The notes beneath the pieces were generated by a model, which had not been told where the DNA came from, did no database searches, and worked only from the letters and a program-made list of their open reading frames with translations. From NCBI RefSeq assembly GCF_988242995.1, contig NZ_OZ547043.1: a stretch of 64,000 bases of DNA, one strand, 5' to 3'. Position 1 is the first letter of the stretch. Every line of letters starts with the position of its first letter. Of the stretch, positions 45,854 to 57,343 are shown piece after piece. Position numbers and translations under genes: made by a program.

Positions 45854-46324
<471 letters not shown>

Positions 46325-46441
46325 TCGAATAATCGTCTACGCCAGAACGCCTGGGTAATGTTATTGCTCTAACTATATTAATAATTCAGGTTGCTGCACA
46401 TGCAACTTGAATTATGACAAACATAGCCTCAAGGAATAGCT

Positions 46442-46915
46442 ATGAAAAAAATACTTGAAGCAATACTGGCGATTAATCTCGCCGTACTTTCCTGTATTGT
46501 GTTTATAAACATTATTTTAAGATATGGTTTTCAGACAAGCATTTTATCTGTAGATGAATTGTCACGTTATTTATTTGTCTGGTTAACATTTATTGGCGCG
46601 ATTGTGGCTTTTATGGATAACGCCCACGTTCAGGTCACCTTTCTGGTGGAGAAACTCTCCCCCGCATGGCAGCGACGAGTCGCTCTGGTTACCCATTCCT
46701 TAATCTTATTTATTTGTGGCGCACTGGCCTGGGGCGCAACGCTAAAAACAATTCAGGACTGGAGCGATTATTCACCGATCCTCGGTTTGCCCATCGGCCT
46801 GATGTATGCCGCTTGTCTGCCCACCAGCCTCGTTATCGCATTCTTTGAACTGCGTCATTTATATCAACTCATCACGCGTAGCAATTCTCTAACGTCGCCA
46901 CCGCAAGGAGCTTAA
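46442..46915 (+). CDS. yiaM: TRAP transporter small permease YiaM
   Basis: 157-aa 4-TM ORF (DctQ-like). Confidence 0.9.
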
Positions 46916-46917
46916 TC

Positions 46918-48195
46918 ATGGCTGTGCTGATTTTTCTGGGCTGTCTGTTGGGTGGTATTGCTATCGGTTTGCCTATTGCCTGGGCACTGTTGTTGTGCGG
47001 AGCGGCGTTAATGTTCTGGCTGGACATGTTTGATGTCCAGATCATGGCACAAACGCTGGTGAACGGAGCCGACAGCTTCTCCCTGCTGGCGATTCCGTTC
47101 TTTGTGCTGGCGGGTGAAATCATGAATGCGGGCGGCTTGTCGAAACGCATTGTTGACCTGCCGATGAAACTGGTGGGGCATAAGCCTGGTGGGCTTGGCT
47201 ACGTCGGCGTGCTGGCGGCAATGATTATGGCGAGCCTTTCCGGTTCTGCCGTTGCAGATACCGCCGCCGTTGCCGCACTACTGGTGCCGATGATGCGCAG
47301 CGCCGACTACCCGGTCAACCGGGCGGCGGGGCTGATTGCCTCTGGCGGCATTATCGCGCCAATTATTCCCCCTTCCATTCCGTTTATTATTTTCGGCGTT
47401 TCCAGCGGATTATCCATCAGTAAGCTGTTTATGGCGGGCATTGCCCCTGGCATGATGATGGGCGCAACGCTGATGCTTACCTGGTGGTGGCAGGCCAGTC
47501 GCCTTAATTTACCCCGCCAGCAAAAAGCAACGATGCAGGAAATCTGGCACTCTTTTGTCTCCGGTATCTGGGCGCTGTTTCTTCCAGTCATCATTATTGG
47601 CGGGTTTCGCTCCGGTCTGTTTACCCCTACCGAAGCCGGGGCCGTTGCTGCTTTCTATGCGCTGTTTGTCGCCACAGTTATTTACCGTGAAATGACCTTC
47701 GCCACACTTTGGCATGTGCTCATTGGCGCAGCGAAAACGACCTCAGTGGTGATGTTTCTGGTGGCCTCGGCACAAGTTTCCGCCTGGCTGATCACCATTG
47801 CTGAACTGCCGATGATGGTTTCTGATTTACTGCAACCGCTGGTCGATTCACCGCGTCTGCTGTTTATCGTCATTATGGTGGCTATCCTGATTGTCGGCAT
47901 GGTCATGGATTTAACGCCGACGGTATTAATTCTTACCCCGGTATTAATGCCTTTAGTTAAAGAGGCAGGAATCGATCCGATTTATTTCGGTGTCATGTTT
48001 ATCATTAACTGCTCAATCGGCTTAATTACACCGCCTATCGGTAATGTGCTTAACGTTATTTCAGGGGTGGCAAAACTCAAATTCGATGATGCAGTCAGAG
48101 GCGTTTTCCCTTACGTCCTGGTTTTATATTCATTATTAGTCGTATTTGTTTTTATTCCCGATCTCATCATCCTCCCTTTGAAATGGATTAATTAA
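46918..48195 (+). CDS. yiaN: TRAP transporter large permease YiaN
   Basis: 425-aa polytopic DctM-like ORF. Confidence 0.9.
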   Translation: MAVLIFLGCLLGGIAIGLPIAWALLLCGAALMFWLDMFDVQIMAQTLVNGADSFSLLAIPFFVLAGEIMNAGGLSKRIVDLPMKLVGHKPGGLGYVGVLAAMIMASLSGSAVADTAAVAALLVPMMRSADYPVNRAAGLIASGGIIAPIIPPSIPFIIFGVSSGLSISKLFMAGIAPGMMMGATLMLTWWWQASRLNLPRQQKATMQEIWHSFVSGIWALFLPVIIIGGFRSGLFTPTEAGAVAAFYALFVATVIYREMTFATLWHVLIGAAKTTSVVMFLVASAQVSAWLITIAELPMMVSDLLQPLVDSPRLLFIVIMVAILIVGMVMDLTPTVLILTPVLMPLVKEAGIDPIYFGVMFIINCSIGLITPPIGNVLNVISGVAKLKFDDAVRGVFPYVLVLYSLLVVFVFIPDLIILPLKWIN

Positions 48196-48207
48196 AAGGA
48201 AAATATT

Positions 48208-49194
48208 ATGAAATTACGTTCTGTAACCTACGCTTTATTAATTTCCGGAGTGGCTGCGTTCAGCACATCTTCTCTGGCGGCACAATCATTACGTTTCGGT
48301 TATGAAACCTCACAAACCGACTCGCAACATATTGCGGCAAAGAAATTCAATGAATTATTACAGGAAAAAACCAAAGGCGAACTGAAATTAAAATTGTTTC
48401 CGGATAGCACTCTCGGTAATGCGCAGGCGATGATCAGCGGCGTACGTGGCGGCACCATCGATATGGAAATGTCCGGCTCGAATAACTTTGCCGGGTTATC
48501 ACCAGTGATGAACTTGCTTGATGTCCCTTTCCTGTTCCGCGATACCGCTCACGCGCATAAAACGCTCGACGGCAAAGTCGGTGATGATCTGAAAGCCTCA
48601 CTTGAAGGTAAAGGACTAAAAGTACTGGCCTACTGGGAAAACGGCTGGCGCGATGTCACCAACTCGCGCGCACCGGTTAAAACCCCCGCCGACCTGAAAG
48701 GGCTGAAAATTCGCACCAACAATAGCCCGATGAATATCGCCGCATTCAAAGTCTTTGGCGCTAACCCGATCCCGATGCCGTTTGCCGAAGTCTATACCGG
48801 GCTGGAAACGCGCACTATCGACGCACAGGAACACCCGATCAACGTCGTCTGGTCAGCAAAATTTTTCGAAGTACAGAAGTACCTTTCTCTGACGCACCAC
48901 GCCTATTCGCCACTTCTGGTGGTGATCAACAAAGCGAAGTTTGACGGCTTAACCCCGGAGTTCCAGCAGGCGCTGATCTCATCTGCGCAGGAAGCGGGTA
49001 ACTACCAGCGCAAACTGGTTGCCGAAGATCAGCAAAAAATCATCGACGGCATGAAAGAAGCGGGCGTGGAAGTCATCACCGATCTCGACCGCAAAGCCTT
49101 TAGCGACGCACTGGGGAATCAGGTTCGCGACATGTTTGTTAAAGATGTTCCGCAGGGTGCTGATCTGCTGAAAGCCGTGGATGAGGTGCAATAA
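48208..49194 (+). CDS. yiaO: TRAP transporter periplasmic solute-binding protein YiaO
   Basis: 328-aa ORF with signal peptide, DctP-like. Confidence 0.9.
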   Translation: MKLRSVTYALLISGVAAFSTSSLAAQSLRFGYETSQTDSQHIAAKKFNELLQEKTKGELKLKLFPDSTLGNAQAMISGVRGGTIDMEMSGSNNFAGLSPVMNLLDVPFLFRDTAHAHKTLDGKVGDDLKASLEGKGLKVLAYWENGWRDVTNSRAPVKTPADLKGLKIRTNNSPMNIAAFKVFGANPIPMPFAEVYTGLETRTIDAQEHPINVVWSAKFFEVQKYLSLTHHAYSPLLVVINKAKFDGLTPEFQQALISSAQEAGNYQRKLVAEDQQKIIDGMKEAGVEVITDLDRKAFSDALGNQVRDMFVKDVPQGADLLKAVDEVQ

Positions 49195-49197
49195 ACC

Positions 49198-50694
49198 ATG
49201 ACGCAATACTGGCTGGGGTTAGATTGTGGCGGTAGCTGGCTGAAAGCCGGGCTGTATGACCGCGAAGGCCGGGAGGCAGGCGTGCAGCGCCTGCCGCTGT
49301 GCGCATTAAGCCCGCAGCCAGGCTGGGCAGAGCGCGATATGGCAGAACTGTGGCAATGCTGCATGGCTGTCATTCGCACCCTGCTTACTCATTCTGGTGT
49401 CAGCGGGGAGCAAATAGTGGGTATCGGTATCTCCGCACAGGGAAAGGGCTTGTTTTTGCTGGATAAAAACGACAAGCCGCTCGGGAATGCTATTTTGTCC
49501 TCGGACCGCCGGGCGATGGAAATCGTTCGTCGCTGGCAGGAAGATGGCATCCCGGAAAAACTCTACCCGCTGACCCGACAAACCTTGTGGACCGGGCATC
49601 CGGTGTCGCTGTTACGCTGGCTGAAAGAGCACGAACCAGAACGCTACGCGCAAATTGGCTGCGTGATGATGACGCACGACTACCTGCGCTGGTGTTTAAC
49701 TGGCGTCAAAGGCTGTGAAGAGAGCAATATTTCCGAGTCCAATCTCTACAACATGAGTCTTGGGGAATATGACCCGTGTCTCACCGACTGGCTGGGGATC
49801 GCTGAAATCAACCACGCCCTGCCGCCTGTTGTCGGATCTGCCGAAATCTGCGGGGAAATCACCGCTCAGACAGCCGCACTGACCGGTCTGAAAGCGGGTA
49901 CGCCCGTTGTCGGCGGCCTGTTTGATGTGGTTTCCACCGCACTCTGTGCCGGGATCGAAGACGAATTTACCCTTAATGCGGTGATGGGCACCTGGGCGGT
50001 GACCAGCGGAATAACCCGTGGTTTACGTGACGGTGAAGCGCATCCGTATGTCTATGGTCGCTACGTTAACGATGGTCAATTTATCGTTCACGAAGCCAGC
50101 CCCACCTCTTCCGGCAACCTCGAATGGTTTACCGCACAGTGGGGAGAAATCTCGTTTGATGAGATTAACCAGGCCGTTGCCAGCTTGCCGAAGGCCGGGG
50201 GCGATCTCTTTTTCCTGCCGTTCCTGTACGGCAGCAACGCCGGACTCGAGATGACCAGCGGTTTCTACGGGATGCAGGCCATTCACACCCGCGCACACCT
50301 GTTGCAGGCCATTTATGAAGGCGTGGTGTTCAGCCATATGACCCATCTCAACCGAATGCGCGAACGTTTTACTGATGTGCACACCCTGCGCGTCACTGGC
50401 GGCCCGGCGCATTCCGATGTCTGGATGCAAATGCTGGCGGACGTCAGCGGGCTGCGTATCGAACTGCCGCAGGTGGAAGAAACCGGCTGTTTTGGCGCGG
50501 CGCTTGCCGCCCGCGTCGGCACCGGGGTTTATCGCGATTTCAGCGAAGCCCAACGTGATTTACAGCACCCGGTACGCACCCTGCTGCCGGATATGACCGC
50601 CCATCAGCTTTACCAACAAAAATACCAACGCTATCAGCATCTCATTGCCGCACTTCAGGGCTTTCACGCCCGCATCAAGGAGCACACATTATGA
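49198..50694 (+). CDS. lyxK: L-xylulose/3-keto-L-gulonate kinase LyxK (498 aa)
   Basis: FGGY kinase family (YWLGLDCGGSWLKAGLYD...). Confidence 0.92.
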   Translation: MTQYWLGLDCGGSWLKAGLYDREGREAGVQRLPLCALSPQPGWAERDMAELWQCCMAVIRTLLTHSGVSGEQIVGIGISAQGKGLFLLDKNDKPLGNAILSSDRRAMEIVRRWQEDGIPEKLYPLTRQTLWTGHPVSLLRWLKEHEPERYAQIGCVMMTHDYLRWCLTGVKGCEESNISESNLYNMSLGEYDPCLTDWLGIAEINHALPPVVGSAEICGEITAQTAALTGLKAGTPVVGGLFDVVSTALCAGIEDEFTLNAVMGTWAVTSGITRGLRDGEAHPYVYGRYVNDGQFIVHEASPTSSGNLEWFTAQWGEISFDEINQAVASLPKAGGDLFFLPFLYGSNAGLEMTSGFYGMQAIHTRAHLLQAIYEGVVFSHMTHLNRMRERFTDVHTLRVTGGPAHSDVWMQMLADVSGLRIELPQVEETGCFGAALAARVGTGVYRDFSEAQRDLQHPVRTLLPDMTAHQLYQQKYQRYQHLIAALQGFHARIKEHTL

Positions 50695-51353
50695 GCCGAC
50701 CACTTCTGCAACTGGCCCTCGACCACTCATCACTTGAAGACGCACAGCGCGACGTGATGCTGTTAAAAGACAGCGTCGATATCGTCGAAGCGGGCACCAT
50801 TCTCTGTTTAAACGAAGGGCTTGGCGCAGTGAAAGCCTTGCGCGAACAGTGCCCGAACAAAATCATCGTCGCTGACTGGAAGGTCGCCGATGCCGGTGAA
50901 ACGCTCGCTCAACAAGCATTTACCGCAGGTGCTAACTGGATGACCATCATCTGCGCCGCACCGCTCGCGACGGTGGAAAAAGGCCACGCGATGGCGCAAC
51001 GCTGCGGCGGTGAAATTCAGATAGAGCTGTTCGGTAACTGGACGCTGGACGACGCCCGCGACTGGCATCGTATTGGCGTGCGGCAGGCGATTTATCATCG
51101 CGGTCGCGACGCGCAAGCCAGCGGGCAACAGTGGGGCGAAGCCGATCTTGCACGCATGAAGGCGCTTTCCGATATCGGCCTTGAGCTTTCCATTACCGGC
51201 GGTATTACTCCTGCTGATCTGCCACTGTTTAAAGATATCCGCGTAAAGGCGTTTATTGCCGGACGGGCGCTGGCAGGCGCAGCAAATCCGGTGCAGGTGG
51301 CTGGCGATTTCCATGCGCAAATCGACGCTATCTGGGGAGGCGCGCGTGCGTAA
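50691..51353 (+). CDS. sgbH: 3-keto-L-gulonate-6-phosphate decarboxylase SgbH (220 aa)
   Basis: OMP-decarboxylase-like ORF; ATG overlaps lyxK stop. Confidence 0.92.
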
Positions 51354-52206
51354 TCATCCGTTAGGGATTTATGAAAAAGCGCTGGCGAAAGATCTCTCCT
51401 GGCCGGAGCGGCTGGTGCTGGCAAAAAGCTGCGGCTTTGATTTTGTCGAAATGTCGGTGGATGAAACTGACGAGCGTCTGTCACGCCTTGACTGGAGCGC
51501 CGCACAACGTGCTTTGCTGGTCACTGCGATGATCCAAACGGGTGTTGCCATTCCGTCGATGTGCCTGTCCGCACATCGTCGCTTTCCTTTTGGTAGCCGT
51601 GACGACGCGGTACGCCAGAGAGCACGGGAGATCATGAGTAAAGCGATTCGCCTGGCGCGCGATCTCGGCATTCGTACTATTCAACTGGCAGGTTACGACG
51701 TCTATTACGAAGACCACGACGAAGGCACCCAGCAACGTTTTGCTGAAGGGCTGGCGTGGGCGGTCGAACAGGCGGCGGCATCACAAGTCATGCTGGCAGT
51801 GGAGATTATGGATACCGCGTTTATGAACTCCATCAGCAAATGGAAAAAATGGGACGAGATGCTCGCCTCGCCGTGGTTCACCGTCTACCCGGACGTCGGC
51901 AACCTCAGCGCCTGGGGCAATGATGTTCCCGCCGAACTGAAACTGGGCATTGATCGTATCGCCGCGATCCACCTGAAAGACACCCAGCCAGTCACCGAGC
52001 AAAGCCCCGGACAGTTCCGCGACGTGCCGTTTGGCGAAGGCTGCGTCGATTTCGTTGGCATCTTCAAAACGCTGCATGAACTGAACTATCGCGGTTCTTT
52101 CCTGATTGAGATGTGGACCGAAAAAGCCAAAGAGCCGGTGCTGGAGATTATTCAGGCGCGGCGCTGGATTGAAGCGCGTATGCAGGAGGCTGGATTTATA
52201 TGTTAG
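51346..52206 (+). CDS. sgbU: L-ribulose-5-phosphate 3-epimerase SgbU (286 aa)
   Basis: Xylose-isomerase-like TIM barrel; start placed at GTG 51346 ([18 protein letters not shown]...) overlapping sgbH stop by 8 bp; ORF-track ATG at 51256 would overlap sgbH by 98 bp. Confidence 0.85.
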
Positions 52207-52895
52207 AGCAACTGAAAGCCGACGTGCTGGCGGCAAATCTGGCACTTCCCGCTCACCATCTGGTGACGTTCACCTGGGGCAATGTCAGCGCGGTAGACGA
52301 AACGCGGCAATGGATGGTAATCAAACCTTCCGGCGTCGAGTACGACGTGATGACCGCCGACGATATGGTGGTGGTTGAGATAGCCACCGGTAAGGTGGTG
52401 GAAGGCAGAAAAAAACCCTCGTCCGACACGCCAACGCATCTGGCGCTCTACCGTCGCTATGCCGAAATCGGTGGCATTGTGCATACCCACTCGCGCCACG
52501 CGACCATCTGGTCACAGGCCGGGCTGGATCTCCCCGCCTGGGGCACCACGCACGCCGATTACTTCTATGGAGCCATCCCCTGCACGCGCCTGATGACCGC
52601 AGAAGAGATCAACGGCGAGTATGAATACCAGACTGGCGAAGTGATCATTGAAACCCTCGAAGAACGCGGCAGGAGTCCAGCGCAAATCCCGGCGGTTCTG
52701 GTACATTCTCACGGCCCGTTCGCCTGGGGAAAAAATGCCGCCGATGCAGTGCATAACGCCGTGGTGCTGGAAGAGTGCGCCTATATGGGCCTGTTCTCGC
52801 GCCAGCTTGCGCCGCAACTCCCTGCGATGCAAAACGAACTGTTGGATAAGCACTACCTGCGTAAGCATGGGGCCAATGCCTATTACGGGCAGTAA
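52200..52895 (+). CDS. sgbE: L-ribulose-5-phosphate 4-epimerase SgbE (231 aa)
   Basis: Class II aldolase/epimerase family (AraD-like); overlaps sgbU stop. Confidence 0.92.
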
Positions 52896-52926
52896 TCCCT
52901 CACGCCGGGGCTTCATCGCCCCGGCA

Positions 52927-53742
52927 CTACGAATTGATATGTTCCTTGCTGTAACGTCGCTTCCACGCAGCTGGCGTTAAACCGGTGTGTTTGCGAAAAA
53001 TCTGTCGGAAATAACCAACGTCATTAAACCCGCACAACGCCGCCACTTCCGTGAGCGATCGCGCTTCGCTAATTAACAGCTTTTCGGCTTCGCGCACTCG
53101 CTGGCGATGAATTGCTTCTGTTAACGTCAGATGAAACACCCGCCGATAGACACGCCCAAGATAATCGGCATTGCAGTACAGCTCGCGGGCTAAAAGCGCC
53201 GTGGAAAGCGGGCGATGATATTGCGTGCGGATCAGTTTCTGCGCTTTCCAGGCAAGCGTGGTACCTGCGGCATCGGCCTGTTCATCAAGACGCGCGTCAC
53301 GGGTGAGTTGCTGCAAAATCAGCAGCACAATAAACTCCAGCGCCGGAGTGCGTTGATGCTTTTCCTGTTCGCTTAAGAACTGGCGAAACAGGGCCACCAA
53401 CGCCTGCGGATCGGCAACCTTCGTTTGTTGCGGCACGCTAAGATGAGTGAGCCAGCGCGGGTCGCTATCCGGCGCTTTAACCTCAAAATGCAGCCAGTAA
53501 AATTTGAGATCGGCGGGAAAATCCTCTACCCCAACATGCTGTCGGTTCGGCCAGAGTAATAAACTCTCTCCCGCATCGACCAGAAATATCCGCTCTTCTT
53601 CCTGAATCGCTAATCGACCTTTTTCGACAAAGATAATTTCCCATGACTCCAGCCGCCTTGCCGGATGCCTCCCTACGCCACGGGAAATAAATAATCCACC
53701 ATTTTGCACTTTAATCGGTAACGTTATGGATAATTCGAGCAT
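52927..53742 (-). CDS. AraC/XylS-family transcriptional regulator (271 aa)
   Basis: N-terminal cupin-like ligand-binding region plus C-terminal double HTH (signature ...DVGYFRQIFRKHTGLTPAAWKRR); divergent from transporter gene. Confidence 0.85.
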   Translation of the reverse strand: MLELSITLPIKVQNGGLFISRGVGRHPARRLESWEIIFVEKGRLAIQEEERIFLVDAGESLLLWPNRQHVGVEDFPADLKFYWLHFEVKAPDSDPRWLTHLSVPQQTKVADPQALVALFRQFLSEQEKHQRTPALEFIVLLILQQLTRDARLDEQADAAGTTLAWKAQKLIRTQYHRPLSTALLARELYCNADYLGRVYRRVFHLTLTEAIHRQRVREAEKLLISEARSLTEVAALCGFNDVGYFRQIFRKHTGLTPAAWKRRYSKEHINS

Positions 53743-53967
53743 TGATATGTAATTTCCCGCTTATTCATTAATGATTAAACACATTACCTTTTGATTATGA
53801 ATCAAAAACATTAATTTCACCTGATCCAATTCACACTTTTAAATTCAGGTCGGAATCGTCACCTTTTTTTACTCTTTTCTCGCCTTGTTGATATTCCCGT
53901 TCACGGCAGAATTAATCATGTCATTGCAATAAAACTAAAAATTGCTCCCTATTCACGAGGAATATCT
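53743..53967. promoter_or_regulatory. Divergent promoter region between the AraC-family regulator gene and the GPH transporter–GH127 gene pair
   Basis: 225-bp AT-rich intergenic region with homopolymer tracts (ttttttt) and SD-like sequence (cacgaggaa) before the transporter ATG; individual sites not mapped. Confidence 0.4.
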
Positions 53968-55368
53968 ATGACCTCTACACCGATTACTGCCGCTGATATC
54001 GCTAAAGGTAAAATTGACGATGCGTTATCTGTACGGGAAAAAATAGGCTACGGCCTGGGTGACGCAGGCGGCACCGTAATAACTTGCCTGATCATGAACT
54101 TTCTCACCTTTTTCTACACCGACGTTTTTGGCTTAACTCCGGCGCTGGTCGGCACGCTGTTTATTGCACTGCGCGTGTTTGATGCCATCTCCGACCCGGT
54201 GATGGGCGTCATTGCCGACCGGACGCAAAGTCGCTGGGGGCGCTTTCGTCCGTGGCAGTTATGGATTGCCATTCCCATCGGCATTATCGGCATCCTGACG
54301 TTCACCGTGCCAGATGCCAGCATGGGAGTAAAAATCGCCTGGGCGTTCGGCACTTACCTGCTCCTTTCAGTCGGTTATACCGCCATCAACGTGCCGTACT
54401 GCGCGCTGATCAACACCATGACCACCCGCCACAATGAAGTGATCTCCTGCCAGTCCTGGCGATTCGTTCTCTGCGGCGTAGCGGGATTTCTGGTTTCGGT
54501 AGGCTTACCGTGGATGGTAGATCTCTTCGGTCAGGGTAATGCCGCGCGCGGCTATCAACTGGGCGTCGGCGTGCTGTGCGCCATCGCTGTGGTGATGTTC
54601 CTGTGCTGTTTCTTCTGGGTTCGTGAACGGGTGCCACTCTCCACAATGGGGAAATTTACCCTGCGCGAACATCTTGCCGGGCTGCGAAACAACGACCAAC
54701 TACTGCTGATGCTGGTCATGTCTTTCCTGCTGATTAACGTCTTTAACATTCGCGGCGGTGGGTATATGTACTTCATTACCTACGTCTTACAAGGCAGTAC
54801 GGGCTACACGTCGCTGTTCTTCACCATGGTCACCTTCGCCTCCATTATCGGCTCGGTGATTGTCAGCCCGTTAACGCGGCGTTTCGATACCGTCAAAATT
54901 TATTACTACACCAACCTGCTCCTCGCTGCGCTGGCGGTGTTGATGTGGTTCCTGCCCTCCGGCCCGGCTTATCAAACGCTGTGGCTGGCGGTGATCCTCG
55001 GTAATGGCGTGATTCTTGGCTTCACATTGCCACTGCACTTCTCATTGATGGCCTTTGCCGATGACTACGGCGAGTGGAAAACCCGCGTACGTTCTTCCGG
55101 CATGAACTTCGCCTTCAATCTGTTTTTCATCAAACTGGCCTGGGCCTCCAGCGCCGGGATCATCAGCCTGCTGTTTATTTTTGTCGCCTACCAGCCAGGC
55201 GTGGAAAACCAGACCACCAGTTCGCTTGGCGGGATCACGGCGATGGAAACATTACTGCCTGCGCTATTCCACCTGCTGCTGGCAGGGGCGATCCGCTTTT
55301 GCAAACTCAATAACCCTATGATGTCACGCATTGCTACCGACCTGCGTCAGCGTCATGTACAGCCTTAA
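53968..55368 (+). CDS. Glycoside-pentoside-hexuronide (GPH):cation symporter family transporter (MFS superfamily), 466 aa
   Basis: 12-TM ORF with N-terminal GPH-type sequence (...[25 protein letters not shown]...); stop 10 bp before GH127 start. Confidence 0.85.
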
Positions 55369-55378
55369 GGAGCACAAG

Positions 55379-57343
55379 ATGAACATTTCGGAAGTCGATC
55401 TGCATAAACTGACGGTCAGCGATCCGTTCCTCGGTCAGTACCAACAACTGGTCCGCGATGTGGTGATTCCTTATCAGTGGGACGCCTTGAACGATCGTAT
55501 CCCAGAAGCGGAACCCAGCCATGCGATTGAAAACTTTCGCATTGCCGCAGGACTGCAAGACGGTGAATTTTACGGGATGGTGTTTCAGGACAGCGACGTC
55601 GCCAAATGGCTGGAAGCGGTAGCCTGGTCGCTGTGCCAGAAGCCGGATGCCGAACTGGAAAAAACCGCTGACGAGGTAATCGAACTGGTCGCTTCCGCCC
55701 AGTGCGAAGATGGCTATCTCAATACTTACTTTACGGTAAAAGCGCCCGAAGAACGCTGGAGCAATCTGGCGGAGTGTCATGAACTTTACTGCGCCGGTCA
55801 TCTGATTGAAGCCGGAGTCGCCTTCTTCCAGGCCACGGGCAAGCGGCGCTTGCTGGAAGTGGTTTGCCGTCTGGCCGATCATATCGACAGCGTATTTGGT
55901 CCAGGTGAAAGTAAGTTACACGGTTATCCTGGTCACCCGGAAATTGAACTGGCGCTAATGCGCCTGTATGAAGTGACCGAAGAGCCGCGCTACCTGGCGC
56001 TGACGAACTATTTTGTCGAACAGCGTGGTGCGCAACCGCACTATTACGACCAGGAATATGAAAAGCGCGGGCAGACCTCGCACTGGCACACCTACGGCCC
56101 GGCGTGGATGGTGAAAGATAAAGCCTACAGCCAGGCGCATTTGCCCATCGCACAGCAACAAACCGCCATCGGACATGCAGTACGCTTTGTATATCTGATG
56201 ACTGGCGTCGCACATCTGGCGCGTTTAAGTCACGATGAAAGCAAGCGTCAGGATTGCCTGCGGCTGTGGAACAATATGGCCCAGCGTCAGTTATATATTA
56301 CCGGCGGCATTGGCTCACAAAGCAGCGGCGAAGCGTTCAGCAGCGATTACGATCTGCCGAATGACACGGTTTACGCCGAAAGCTGTGCTTCCATCGGCCT
56401 GATGATGTTCGCCCGGCGAATGCTGGAAATGGAAGGCGACAGTCAATATGCCGATGTGATGGAGCGCGCACTGTACAACACCGTGCTCGGCGGCATGGCG
56501 CTGGATGGCAAACATTTCTTCTATGTGAATCCGCTGGAAGTACATCCAAAATCGCTGAAATTCAACCATATCTACGATCACGTTAAGCCGATCCGCCAGC
56601 GTTGGTTTGGTTGCGCTTGTTGTCCGCCAAATATCGCCCGCGTGCTGACCTCGATTGGTCATTATCTCTACACGCCGCGTGAAGATGCGTTGTATATCAA
56701 CATCTACGCAGGAAACAGCATGGAAGTGCCGGTAGAAAATGGCACGTTGCGCCTGCGGGTTAGCGGGAACTATCCGTGGCAGGAACAGGTGACAATTGCG
56801 GTTGAATCGCCCCAGCCGGTGCGTCATACGCTGGCTTTACGTCTGCCGGACTGGTGCACACAGCCGCAGATCATATTGAATGGGGAAGAGGTCGGGCAGG
56901 ATATTCGTAAAGGGTATTTGCACATTACCCGCGAATGGCAGGAGGGCGACACACTGAATCTGACTTTGCCAATGCCGGTACGTCGCGTTTACGGTAACCC
57001 TCTGGTGCGTCACGTCGCCGGAAAAGTGGCGATTCAGCGCGGCCCGCTGGTGTATTGCCTGGAACAGGCCGACAACGGCGAGTCACTGCATAACCTGTGG
57101 CTGCCTACCGATGCGCCATTTACGACCTTTGACGGCAAGGGATTGTTCCGCCATAAGATCTTAATCCAGGCACCGGGTTACCGGTATGAACAGAGCAATC
57201 CAGAGCAGCAACCGCTGTGGCATTACGACAGCGCGCCAGCCAAACGCCAGCCGCAAACCCTGACCTTTATCCCGTGGTTTAGCTGGGCCAACCGGGGTGA
57301 AGGCGAAATGCGGATCTGGGTGAATGAGGAAACCAGCGCATGA
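55379..57343 (+). CDS. Glycoside hydrolase family 127 / DUF1680 protein (beta-L-arabinofuranosidase-like), 655 aa
   Basis: Start trimmed to ATG 55379 preceded by SD aaggag; contains the Cys-rich CACCPPN motif and conserved Glu/Cys positions typical of HypBA1-type enzymes; family assignment from recalled motifs, not from a search. Confidence 0.75.
   Translation: MNISEVDLHKLTVSDPFLGQYQQLVRDVVIPYQWDALNDRIPEAEPSHAIENFRIAAGLQDGEFYGMVFQDSDVAKWLEAVAWSLCQKPDAELEKTADEVIELVASAQCEDGYLNTYFTVKAPEERWSNLAECHELYCAGHLIEAGVAFFQATGKRRLLEVVCRLADHIDSVFGPGESKLHGYPGHPEIELALMRLYEVTEEPRYLALTNYFVEQRGAQPHYYDQEYEKRGQTSHWHTYGPAWMVKDKAYSQAHLPIAQQQTAIGHAVRFVYLMTGVAHLARLSHDESKRQDCLRLWNNMAQRQLYITGGIGSQSSGEAFSSDYDLPNDTVYAESCASIGLMMFARRMLEMEGDSQYADVMERALYNTVLGGMALDGKHFFYVNPLEVHPKSLKFNHIYDHVKPIRQRWFGCACCPPNIARVLTSIGHYLYTPREDALYINIYAGNSMEVPVENGTLRLRVSGNYPWQEQVTIAVESPQPVRHTLALRLPDWCTQPQIILNGEEVGQDIRKGYLHITREWQEGDTLNLTLPMPVRRVYGNPLVRHVAGKVAIQRGPLVYCLEQADNGESLHNLWLPTDAPFTTFDGKGLFRHKILIQAPGYRYEQSNPEQQPLWHYDSAPAKRQPQTLTFIPWFSWANRGEGEMRIWVNEETSA

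Follow-up and report, generated by a model that had tools for sequence, protein, structure and literature searches.

A conserved GTG start for sgbU at its overlap with the sgbH stop codon, preceded by a Shine-Dalgarno element within sgbH

We conclude with high confidence that sgbU in the window (the whole 64,000-nt stretch of contig NZ_OZ547043.1, assembly GCF_988242995.1) is translated from the GTG at 51346 as a protein of 286 amino acids, that initiation is directed by a Shine-Dalgarno (SD) element, that the open frame upstream is a by-product of sgbH, and that reinitiation after sgbH is probable. The comparisons presented here establish the position of the start, the SD together with its selective maintenance, and the absence of coding constraint upstream. 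The first-pass annotation had called the sgbU start ambiguous, but the GTG proved to be a conserved start with a strong and selectively maintained SD. Judged from these alignments, it is the known and ordinary start that databases already annotate, and little is at stake in confirming it.

The sgbH-sgbU junction and the candidate start codons

The features of the locus, all on the + strand, are as follows.

50691-51353, + strand: sgbH, 220 aa; open reading frame, RefSeq CDS in Escherichia coli KE55, model NF009831 (447.7 bits, 1-220/220)
50691-50694, + strand: overlap of lyxK and sgbH, 4 nt (ORF list and KE55 annotation)
51244-51246, + strand: TAA bounding the open extension of the sgbU frame (33 codons), its upstream limit
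51256-51258, + strand: TTG, rejected upstream candidate, 316 codons, 98 nt inside sgbH
51313-51315, + strand: ATG, rejected upstream candidate, 297 codons, 41 nt inside sgbH
51334-51340, + strand: SD of sgbU, GGGGAGG, 5-nt spacer to the GTG, within the sgbH Trp-Gly-Gly codons
51346-51348, + strand: GTG start of sgbU, 286 codons; ATG in 75 of 80 other species
51346-51353, + strand: overlap of the sgbU start and the sgbH stop, GTGCGTAA, 8 nt, co-directional, '-8' class, which 22 of 81 sequences share
51351-51353, + strand: sgbH stop TAA, read from the sequence
51346-52206, + strand: sgbU, putative L-ribulose-5-phosphate 3-epimerase, 286 aa, GTG start; RefSeq CDS WP_089646957.1 in KE55
52204-52206, + strand: sgbU stop codon (ORF list)
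52200-52206, + strand: overlap of the sgbU stop and the sgbE ATG, 7 nt (ORF list and KE55 annotation)

These genes belong to the operon yiaKLMNO-lyxK-sgbHUE, which is repressed by YiaJ/PlaR (PMC6958661). The neighbours lyxK, sgbH and sgbE are backed by family models, and since the sgbH model NF009831 spans the protein from end to end, the sgbH stop and the overlap are real. A scan of 50600-52400 returned no promoter-like sites and terminator-like matches only at chance level, and nothing in it points to a transcript that begins internally and would separate sgbU from sgbH. The RefSeq pipeline labels sgbH (50691-51353) 'ulaD' and sgbE (52200-52895) 'araD', which are paralogue names, despite the yia-sgb operon context.

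The junction segment was matched in 4833 of 5426 complete E. coli genomes, with KE55 100% identical over it. In the RefSeq annotation of KE55, K-12 DH1 and six more E. coli genomes taken across the identity range, sgbU begins at the GTG equivalent to 51346. Over positions 51000-51700 the identity to most complete E. coli is 92-93% (4651 of the 4833 lie in the 90-95% band), and six complete genomes reach at least 99%. Given that the wider operon (45877-53030) averages 96.0% identity to K-12 DH1, the lower values at the junction suggest a divergent, possibly imported allele.

The sgbU frame is +1 relative to sgbH and contains three canonical starts ahead of the conserved protein body. The first-pass annotation had described this frame as open back to an ATG at 51256, giving 316 residues and reaching 98 nt into sgbH; the open frame and both figures stand, but the codon at 51256 is a TTG, which straddles the sgbH codons ATT-GCC (Ile-Ala) in the context TTT ATT GCC. 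The sole in-frame ATG upstream of the GTG is at 51313, straddling the sgbH codons CAT-GCG (His-Ala), and this candidate (297 aa) had been overlooked. The protein length given at that stage fits the GTG and the accepted 286-residue protein, and the reported overlap of the GTG with the sgbH stop is borne out as the 8 nt of GTGCGTAA.

The 286-residue form agrees with its protein family. TIGR00542 matched sgbU with 518.7 bits (cut-off 272.15) over profile positions 1-279 of 279, and NF009689 with 507.9 bits (cut-off 200). Residue 2 of the GTG form, which corresponds to residue 32 of the 316-residue form, is where position 1 of TIGR00542 and position 2 of NF009689 align, so the N-terminus of the family falls at the GTG codon. 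UlaE (L-xylulose-5-phosphate 3-epimerase, PDB 3CQH) aligns from residue 33 of the 316-residue form. It is a paralogue of SgbU from a different operon (ula, ascorbate), alignable over the whole length (E = 2.3e-107), and, like 286-residue SgbU, it begins a few residues ahead of the PLGIYEKAL motif that the two have in common. The sgbU product would accordingly be named L-ribulose-5-phosphate (L-xylulose-5-phosphate) 3-epimerase, its activity, 3-epimerisation of L-xylulose-5-P to L-ribulose-5-P, being assigned by homology. UniProt still labels K-12 SgbU 'putative', and the name in the protein-collection record agrees.

Exact look-ups of the SgbU forms were made in a collection of about 15 billion proteins. 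The 286-residue form occurs on at least 1000 contigs as the K-12 allele and on 350 contigs as the window allele. The 297-residue form occurs on eight contigs, with records AAB18559.1 (K-12), AAN82841.1 (CFT073) and WP_194244833.1 (window allele). Other N-terminal versions on record have 293 residues (WP_257604497.1) and 288 residues (EIE38974.1, one record), and the collection holds no exact match to the 316-residue form. The historical ambiguity in the databases is thus between the ATG at 51313 and the GTG at 51346, not the TTG at 51256. The older 297-residue records, like any longest-ORF call of 316 residues, are over-extensions, and the current RefSeq and UniProt start is correct.

The conserved start and its Shine-Dalgarno element

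The comparative set comprised 80 loci from Enterobacterales and relatives, with one genome per species scanned and sgbH directly upstream in all. The codon aligned with 51346 is a start in 80 of 80 loci (ATG in 75, GTG in 5), a count that takes in four loci whose start is two or five codons upstream of the aligned codon. The encoded N-terminus, which opens with MR, is near-invariant. The GTG version is confined to the Escherichia group (loci L004-L007) and one unrelated locus (L070), and in other genera that share the 8-nt overlap the start is ATG. As the two genes overlap there, the A-to-G change that converts the ATG start to GTG also turns sgbH residue 218 from His (CAT) into Arg (CGT).

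The predicted duplex with the 3' end of 16S rRNA is -11.3 kcal/mol for the GTG, compared with -5.9 kcal/mol for the ATG at 51313 and -3.7 kcal/mol for the TTG at 51256. The background of anti-SD pairing has a mean of -2.35 and a standard deviation of 2.36 kcal/mol, and values of -9 kcal/mol or lower occur at 0.7% of positions. Across the 80 loci the sgbU SD averages -8.3 kcal/mol; the SDs of sgbE and sgbH in the window have values of -10.3 and -7.7 kcal/mol, respectively.

The conservation of the SD extends to positions at which sgbH could vary silently. Among 22 sequences with the identical 8-nt overlap, columns -15 to -7 are near-invariant, sgbH third positions included. In the 80 loci, the sgbH codon after the conserved Trp is GGA in 56, GGG in 12, AGA in 9 and AGG in 3, and never GGC or GGT. 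All four of these purine-rich codons are minor codons in enterobacterial usage. Since minor codons are always the ones chosen here, the purine run appears to be selected as an SD and not for the sgbH protein. The locus is a textbook case of an SD inside an upstream gene that is maintained through rare codons. The five loci with a GTG start have a longer SD than the others (mean -10.9 versus -8.1 kcal/mol), which may compensate for the weaker start codon in this small sample of related lineages.

Junction geometry and coupling to sgbH termination

In all 81 sequences compared, the sgbH stop lies between an 8-nt overlap with the sgbU start and a 4-nt gap from it. Six junction types occur (-8, -4, -1, +1, +2 and +4), across which the SD and the start stay fixed. 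A spacing of -8 is among those enriched in prokaryotes, after -4 and -1, and the reported efficiency of coupling is highest at short spacings and declines as overlaps lengthen, with no coupling observed at -25 (PMC12548453). The '-8 nt' gene pairs of the NTGNNTGA type are associated with translational coupling. The junction GTGCGTAA has their geometry and shows the two properties tested for that class, namely the spacing and an SD inside the coding region (here the last codons) of the upstream gene. It differs from the NTGNNTGA type in its stop codon, TAA in place of TGA, and related species have -4, -1, +1, +2 or +4 at the same junction.

From this geometry and the literature, a route for coupling can be proposed. 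The SD GGGGAGG (51334-51340), in the last sgbH codons, directs initiation at the GTG at 51346. Given that the distance from the first base of the GTG to the sgbH stop is 5 nt, a ribosome that terminates at 51351-51353 would sit on the ribosome-binding site of sgbU and cover both the SD and the GTG. Such a ribosome could pair again with the SD and would probably reinitiate at the GTG (termination-reinitiation), with fresh 30S subunits binding at the SD alongside. Termination-linked coupling of sgbU to sgbH is therefore plausible. The first-pass annotation was right that the choice of start decides whether such coupling is possible, for a start at 51256, with its 98-nt overlap, is incompatible with it. 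A hairpin over the sgbU start that enforces coupling by its unfolding was considered and rejected: the predicted RNA fold over the start region is no better than those of shuffled sequences (z = 0.5), and since no stable structure is predicted, the unfolding form of coupling finds no support.

Initiation at the GTG could instead be purely de novo at the strong SD, with no role of sgbH termination and no coupling, an account that we regard as possible, though less likely than not. The SD is strong and conserved, the predicted RNA fold shows no inhibitory structure, and the stop position drifts over the six junction types with the SD and start unmoved. In the in vitro INRI-seq data for K-12, judged by the peaks in Table S3, initiating ribosomes are drawn to the sgbU start region on fragments that include no more than 30 nt ahead of it and lack sgbH translation (PMC9825163). 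Against this stand the position of the stop, which in 81 of 81 sequences is kept within the range reported as efficient for coupling (PMC12548453), and the physical cover that a terminating ribosome would give to the SD and the GTG. We therefore continue to favour initiation at the GTG with probable reinitiation after sgbH. The locus offers sgbH-synonymous mutations by which coupling at a '-8' junction can be tested.

The K-12 locus is the closest point of reference for these data. K-12 SgbU (b3582, formerly yiaR; WP_001350555.1, 286 aa) is the same gene with the same operon order, GTG start, 8-nt overlap and GGGGAGG, and the window allele has about 92% DNA identity to it over the junction. 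The two differ two codons upstream of the annotated start, where the K-12-type GGT GCG creates a second in-frame GTG (L002 1341-1343); the window has GCG at this codon (51340-51342), so that the GTG at -6 is absent. At least 1624 complete E. coli genomes have this additional GTG, and at least 1288 (238 of the window type and 1050 of the Nissle type) lack it. The 'alternative' K-12 sgbU peaks given in Table S3 of the INRI-seq report are an out-of-frame CTG at -14 and this K-12-specific GTG at -6 (PMC9825163). As the constructs are described there, they carry 30 nt of upstream sequence, which leaves the TTG at -90 and the ATG at -33 outside them (PMC9825163). The TRAINSPOTTER N-terminomics supplements contain no entries for sgbU or sgbH.

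Evolution of the frame upstream of the GTG

Since the frame relationship is the same throughout the 22 sequences with the identical 8-nt overlap, these could be compared column by column. Upstream of the start, entropy peaks in every 30-nt block at position 2 of the sgbU frame, which is the third position of sgbH (0.85-1.26 bits versus 0.1-0.5 elsewhere). Downstream, it peaks in each block at position 3 of the sgbU frame (0.64-1.06 versus 0-0.18). The switch from the sgbH to the sgbU phase occurs exactly at offset 0, the GTG. The distinct variants, with positions relative to the GTG, are distributed as follows.

-90 to -34: sgbU frame, 7 synonymous and 62 non-synonymous; sgbH frame, 39 synonymous and 30 non-synonymous
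-33 to -10: sgbU frame, 5 synonymous and 15 non-synonymous; sgbH frame, 9 synonymous and 11 non-synonymous
+3 to +59: sgbU frame, 25 synonymous and 5 non-synonymous; sgbH frame, 3 synonymous and 27 non-synonymous

By this measure, nothing before the GTG behaves as coding sequence of sgbU. A dual-coding test of 51256-51345 likewise found neither a conserved upstream start with an open frame, nor a ribosome-binding site before an upstream start, nor purifying selection in the sgbU frame. The locus can serve as a textbook case in which an apparent long overlap is resolved from sequence alone by the codon-phase switch of substitutions.

The open extension itself is not above chance, because runs of at least 33 stop-free codons upstream are found at 18% of the +1-frame positions within long ORFs of the window. 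Among the 80 loci, 43 lack any in-frame ATG, GTG or TTG upstream of the start before a stop is reached, and 31 have fewer than 30 open codons there. The extension is cut by a TAA at codon -21 in E. albertii and by a TAG at codon -16 in E. whittamii and locus L006; the TAG arises by an sgbH-synonymous change of GTG to GTA (Val). In E. coli, each of nine sampled sequences keeps the extension open, and the stop-creating GTA variant was found in none of the complete E. coli genomes searched, 3586 of which have the open GTG variant. As the extension is generally open within E. coli, the refutation of the long form rests on the comparison between species. The first-pass annotation had looked to conservation of the 30 upstream codons and to SD evidence as possible support for the longer form; read in the sgbU frame, these codons show no conservation and are broken by stops in sister species, and neither upstream codon has a usable SD. 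Taken at the level of the alignments, the upstream open frame, with its TTG at 51256 and ATG at 51313, is a non-functional by-product of the sgbH coding sequence in the +1 frame.

A start at the ATG at 51313 would add 11 residues and yield the 297-residue protein, as the main product or as a minor isoform. ATG is the strongest start codon, its frame is open in nine of nine sampled E. coli, a weak AGGTGG precedes it, and the 297-residue form is the one used in the older or alternative records cited above (AAB18559.1, AAN82841.1 and WP_194244833.1). However, the AGGTGG is separated from the ATG by a 12-nt spacer and its pairing reaches only -5.9 kcal/mol, and the ATG exists only where the sgbH His codon is CAT, which is the case in 12 of the 22 same-frame sequences and 11 of the 80 species loci. 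Where this ATG is present (12 sequences), the sgbU-frame variants of the 11-codon extension number 2 synonymous and 8 non-synonymous; the eight codons that follow have 8 and 0, respectively. The family profiles do not reach the extension, and the eight contigs with the 297-residue form compare with at least 1000 for the 286-residue form. We thus consider a start at this ATG very unlikely. It is just as improbable that, in Escherichia and in some Klebsiella and Citrobacter with the ATG at -33, a few ribosomes start there and make a minor 297-residue isoform independent of sgbH termination.

A start at the TTG at 51256, which would give the 316-residue form with its synthesis unlinked to sgbH termination, can be dismissed almost entirely: it is the first canonical start after the in-frame stop, opens the longest ORF and has a frame that is open in the sampled E. 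coli, but TTG is a weak start, its pairing of -3.7 kcal/mol is near the background mean of -2.35, the codon arises incidentally from the Ile-Ala codons of sgbH, in E. albertii, E. whittamii and L006 a stop intervenes between its position and the gene body, the extension has 7 synonymous against 62 non-synonymous variants in the sgbU frame, a run of this length is open at 18% of comparable positions, and the form is without a record among about 15 billion proteins. The GTG at 51346 is consequently retained as the start of sgbU.

Some further observations concern the locus in other genomes and the surroundings of the operon. Klebsiella indica TOUT106 has two sgbH-sgbU loci in one genome (L022 and L059), whose junctions are an 8-nt and a 1-nt overlap and whose identities to the query are 93% and 83%, respectively. 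In E. coli strain L1PEag1, sgbU (L003 1345-2186) is annotated as a frameshifted pseudogene. Downstream of sgbE, the window contains an intact AraC-family regulator, an MFS transporter, a GH127 glycoside hydrolase and a HicAB toxin-antitoxin pair (52927-57343, on to about 58236), followed by aldB. K-12 DH1 has only short remnants of AraC and hypothetical-protein genes beside sgbE, with yiaT-yiaU-yiaV-yiaW instead.
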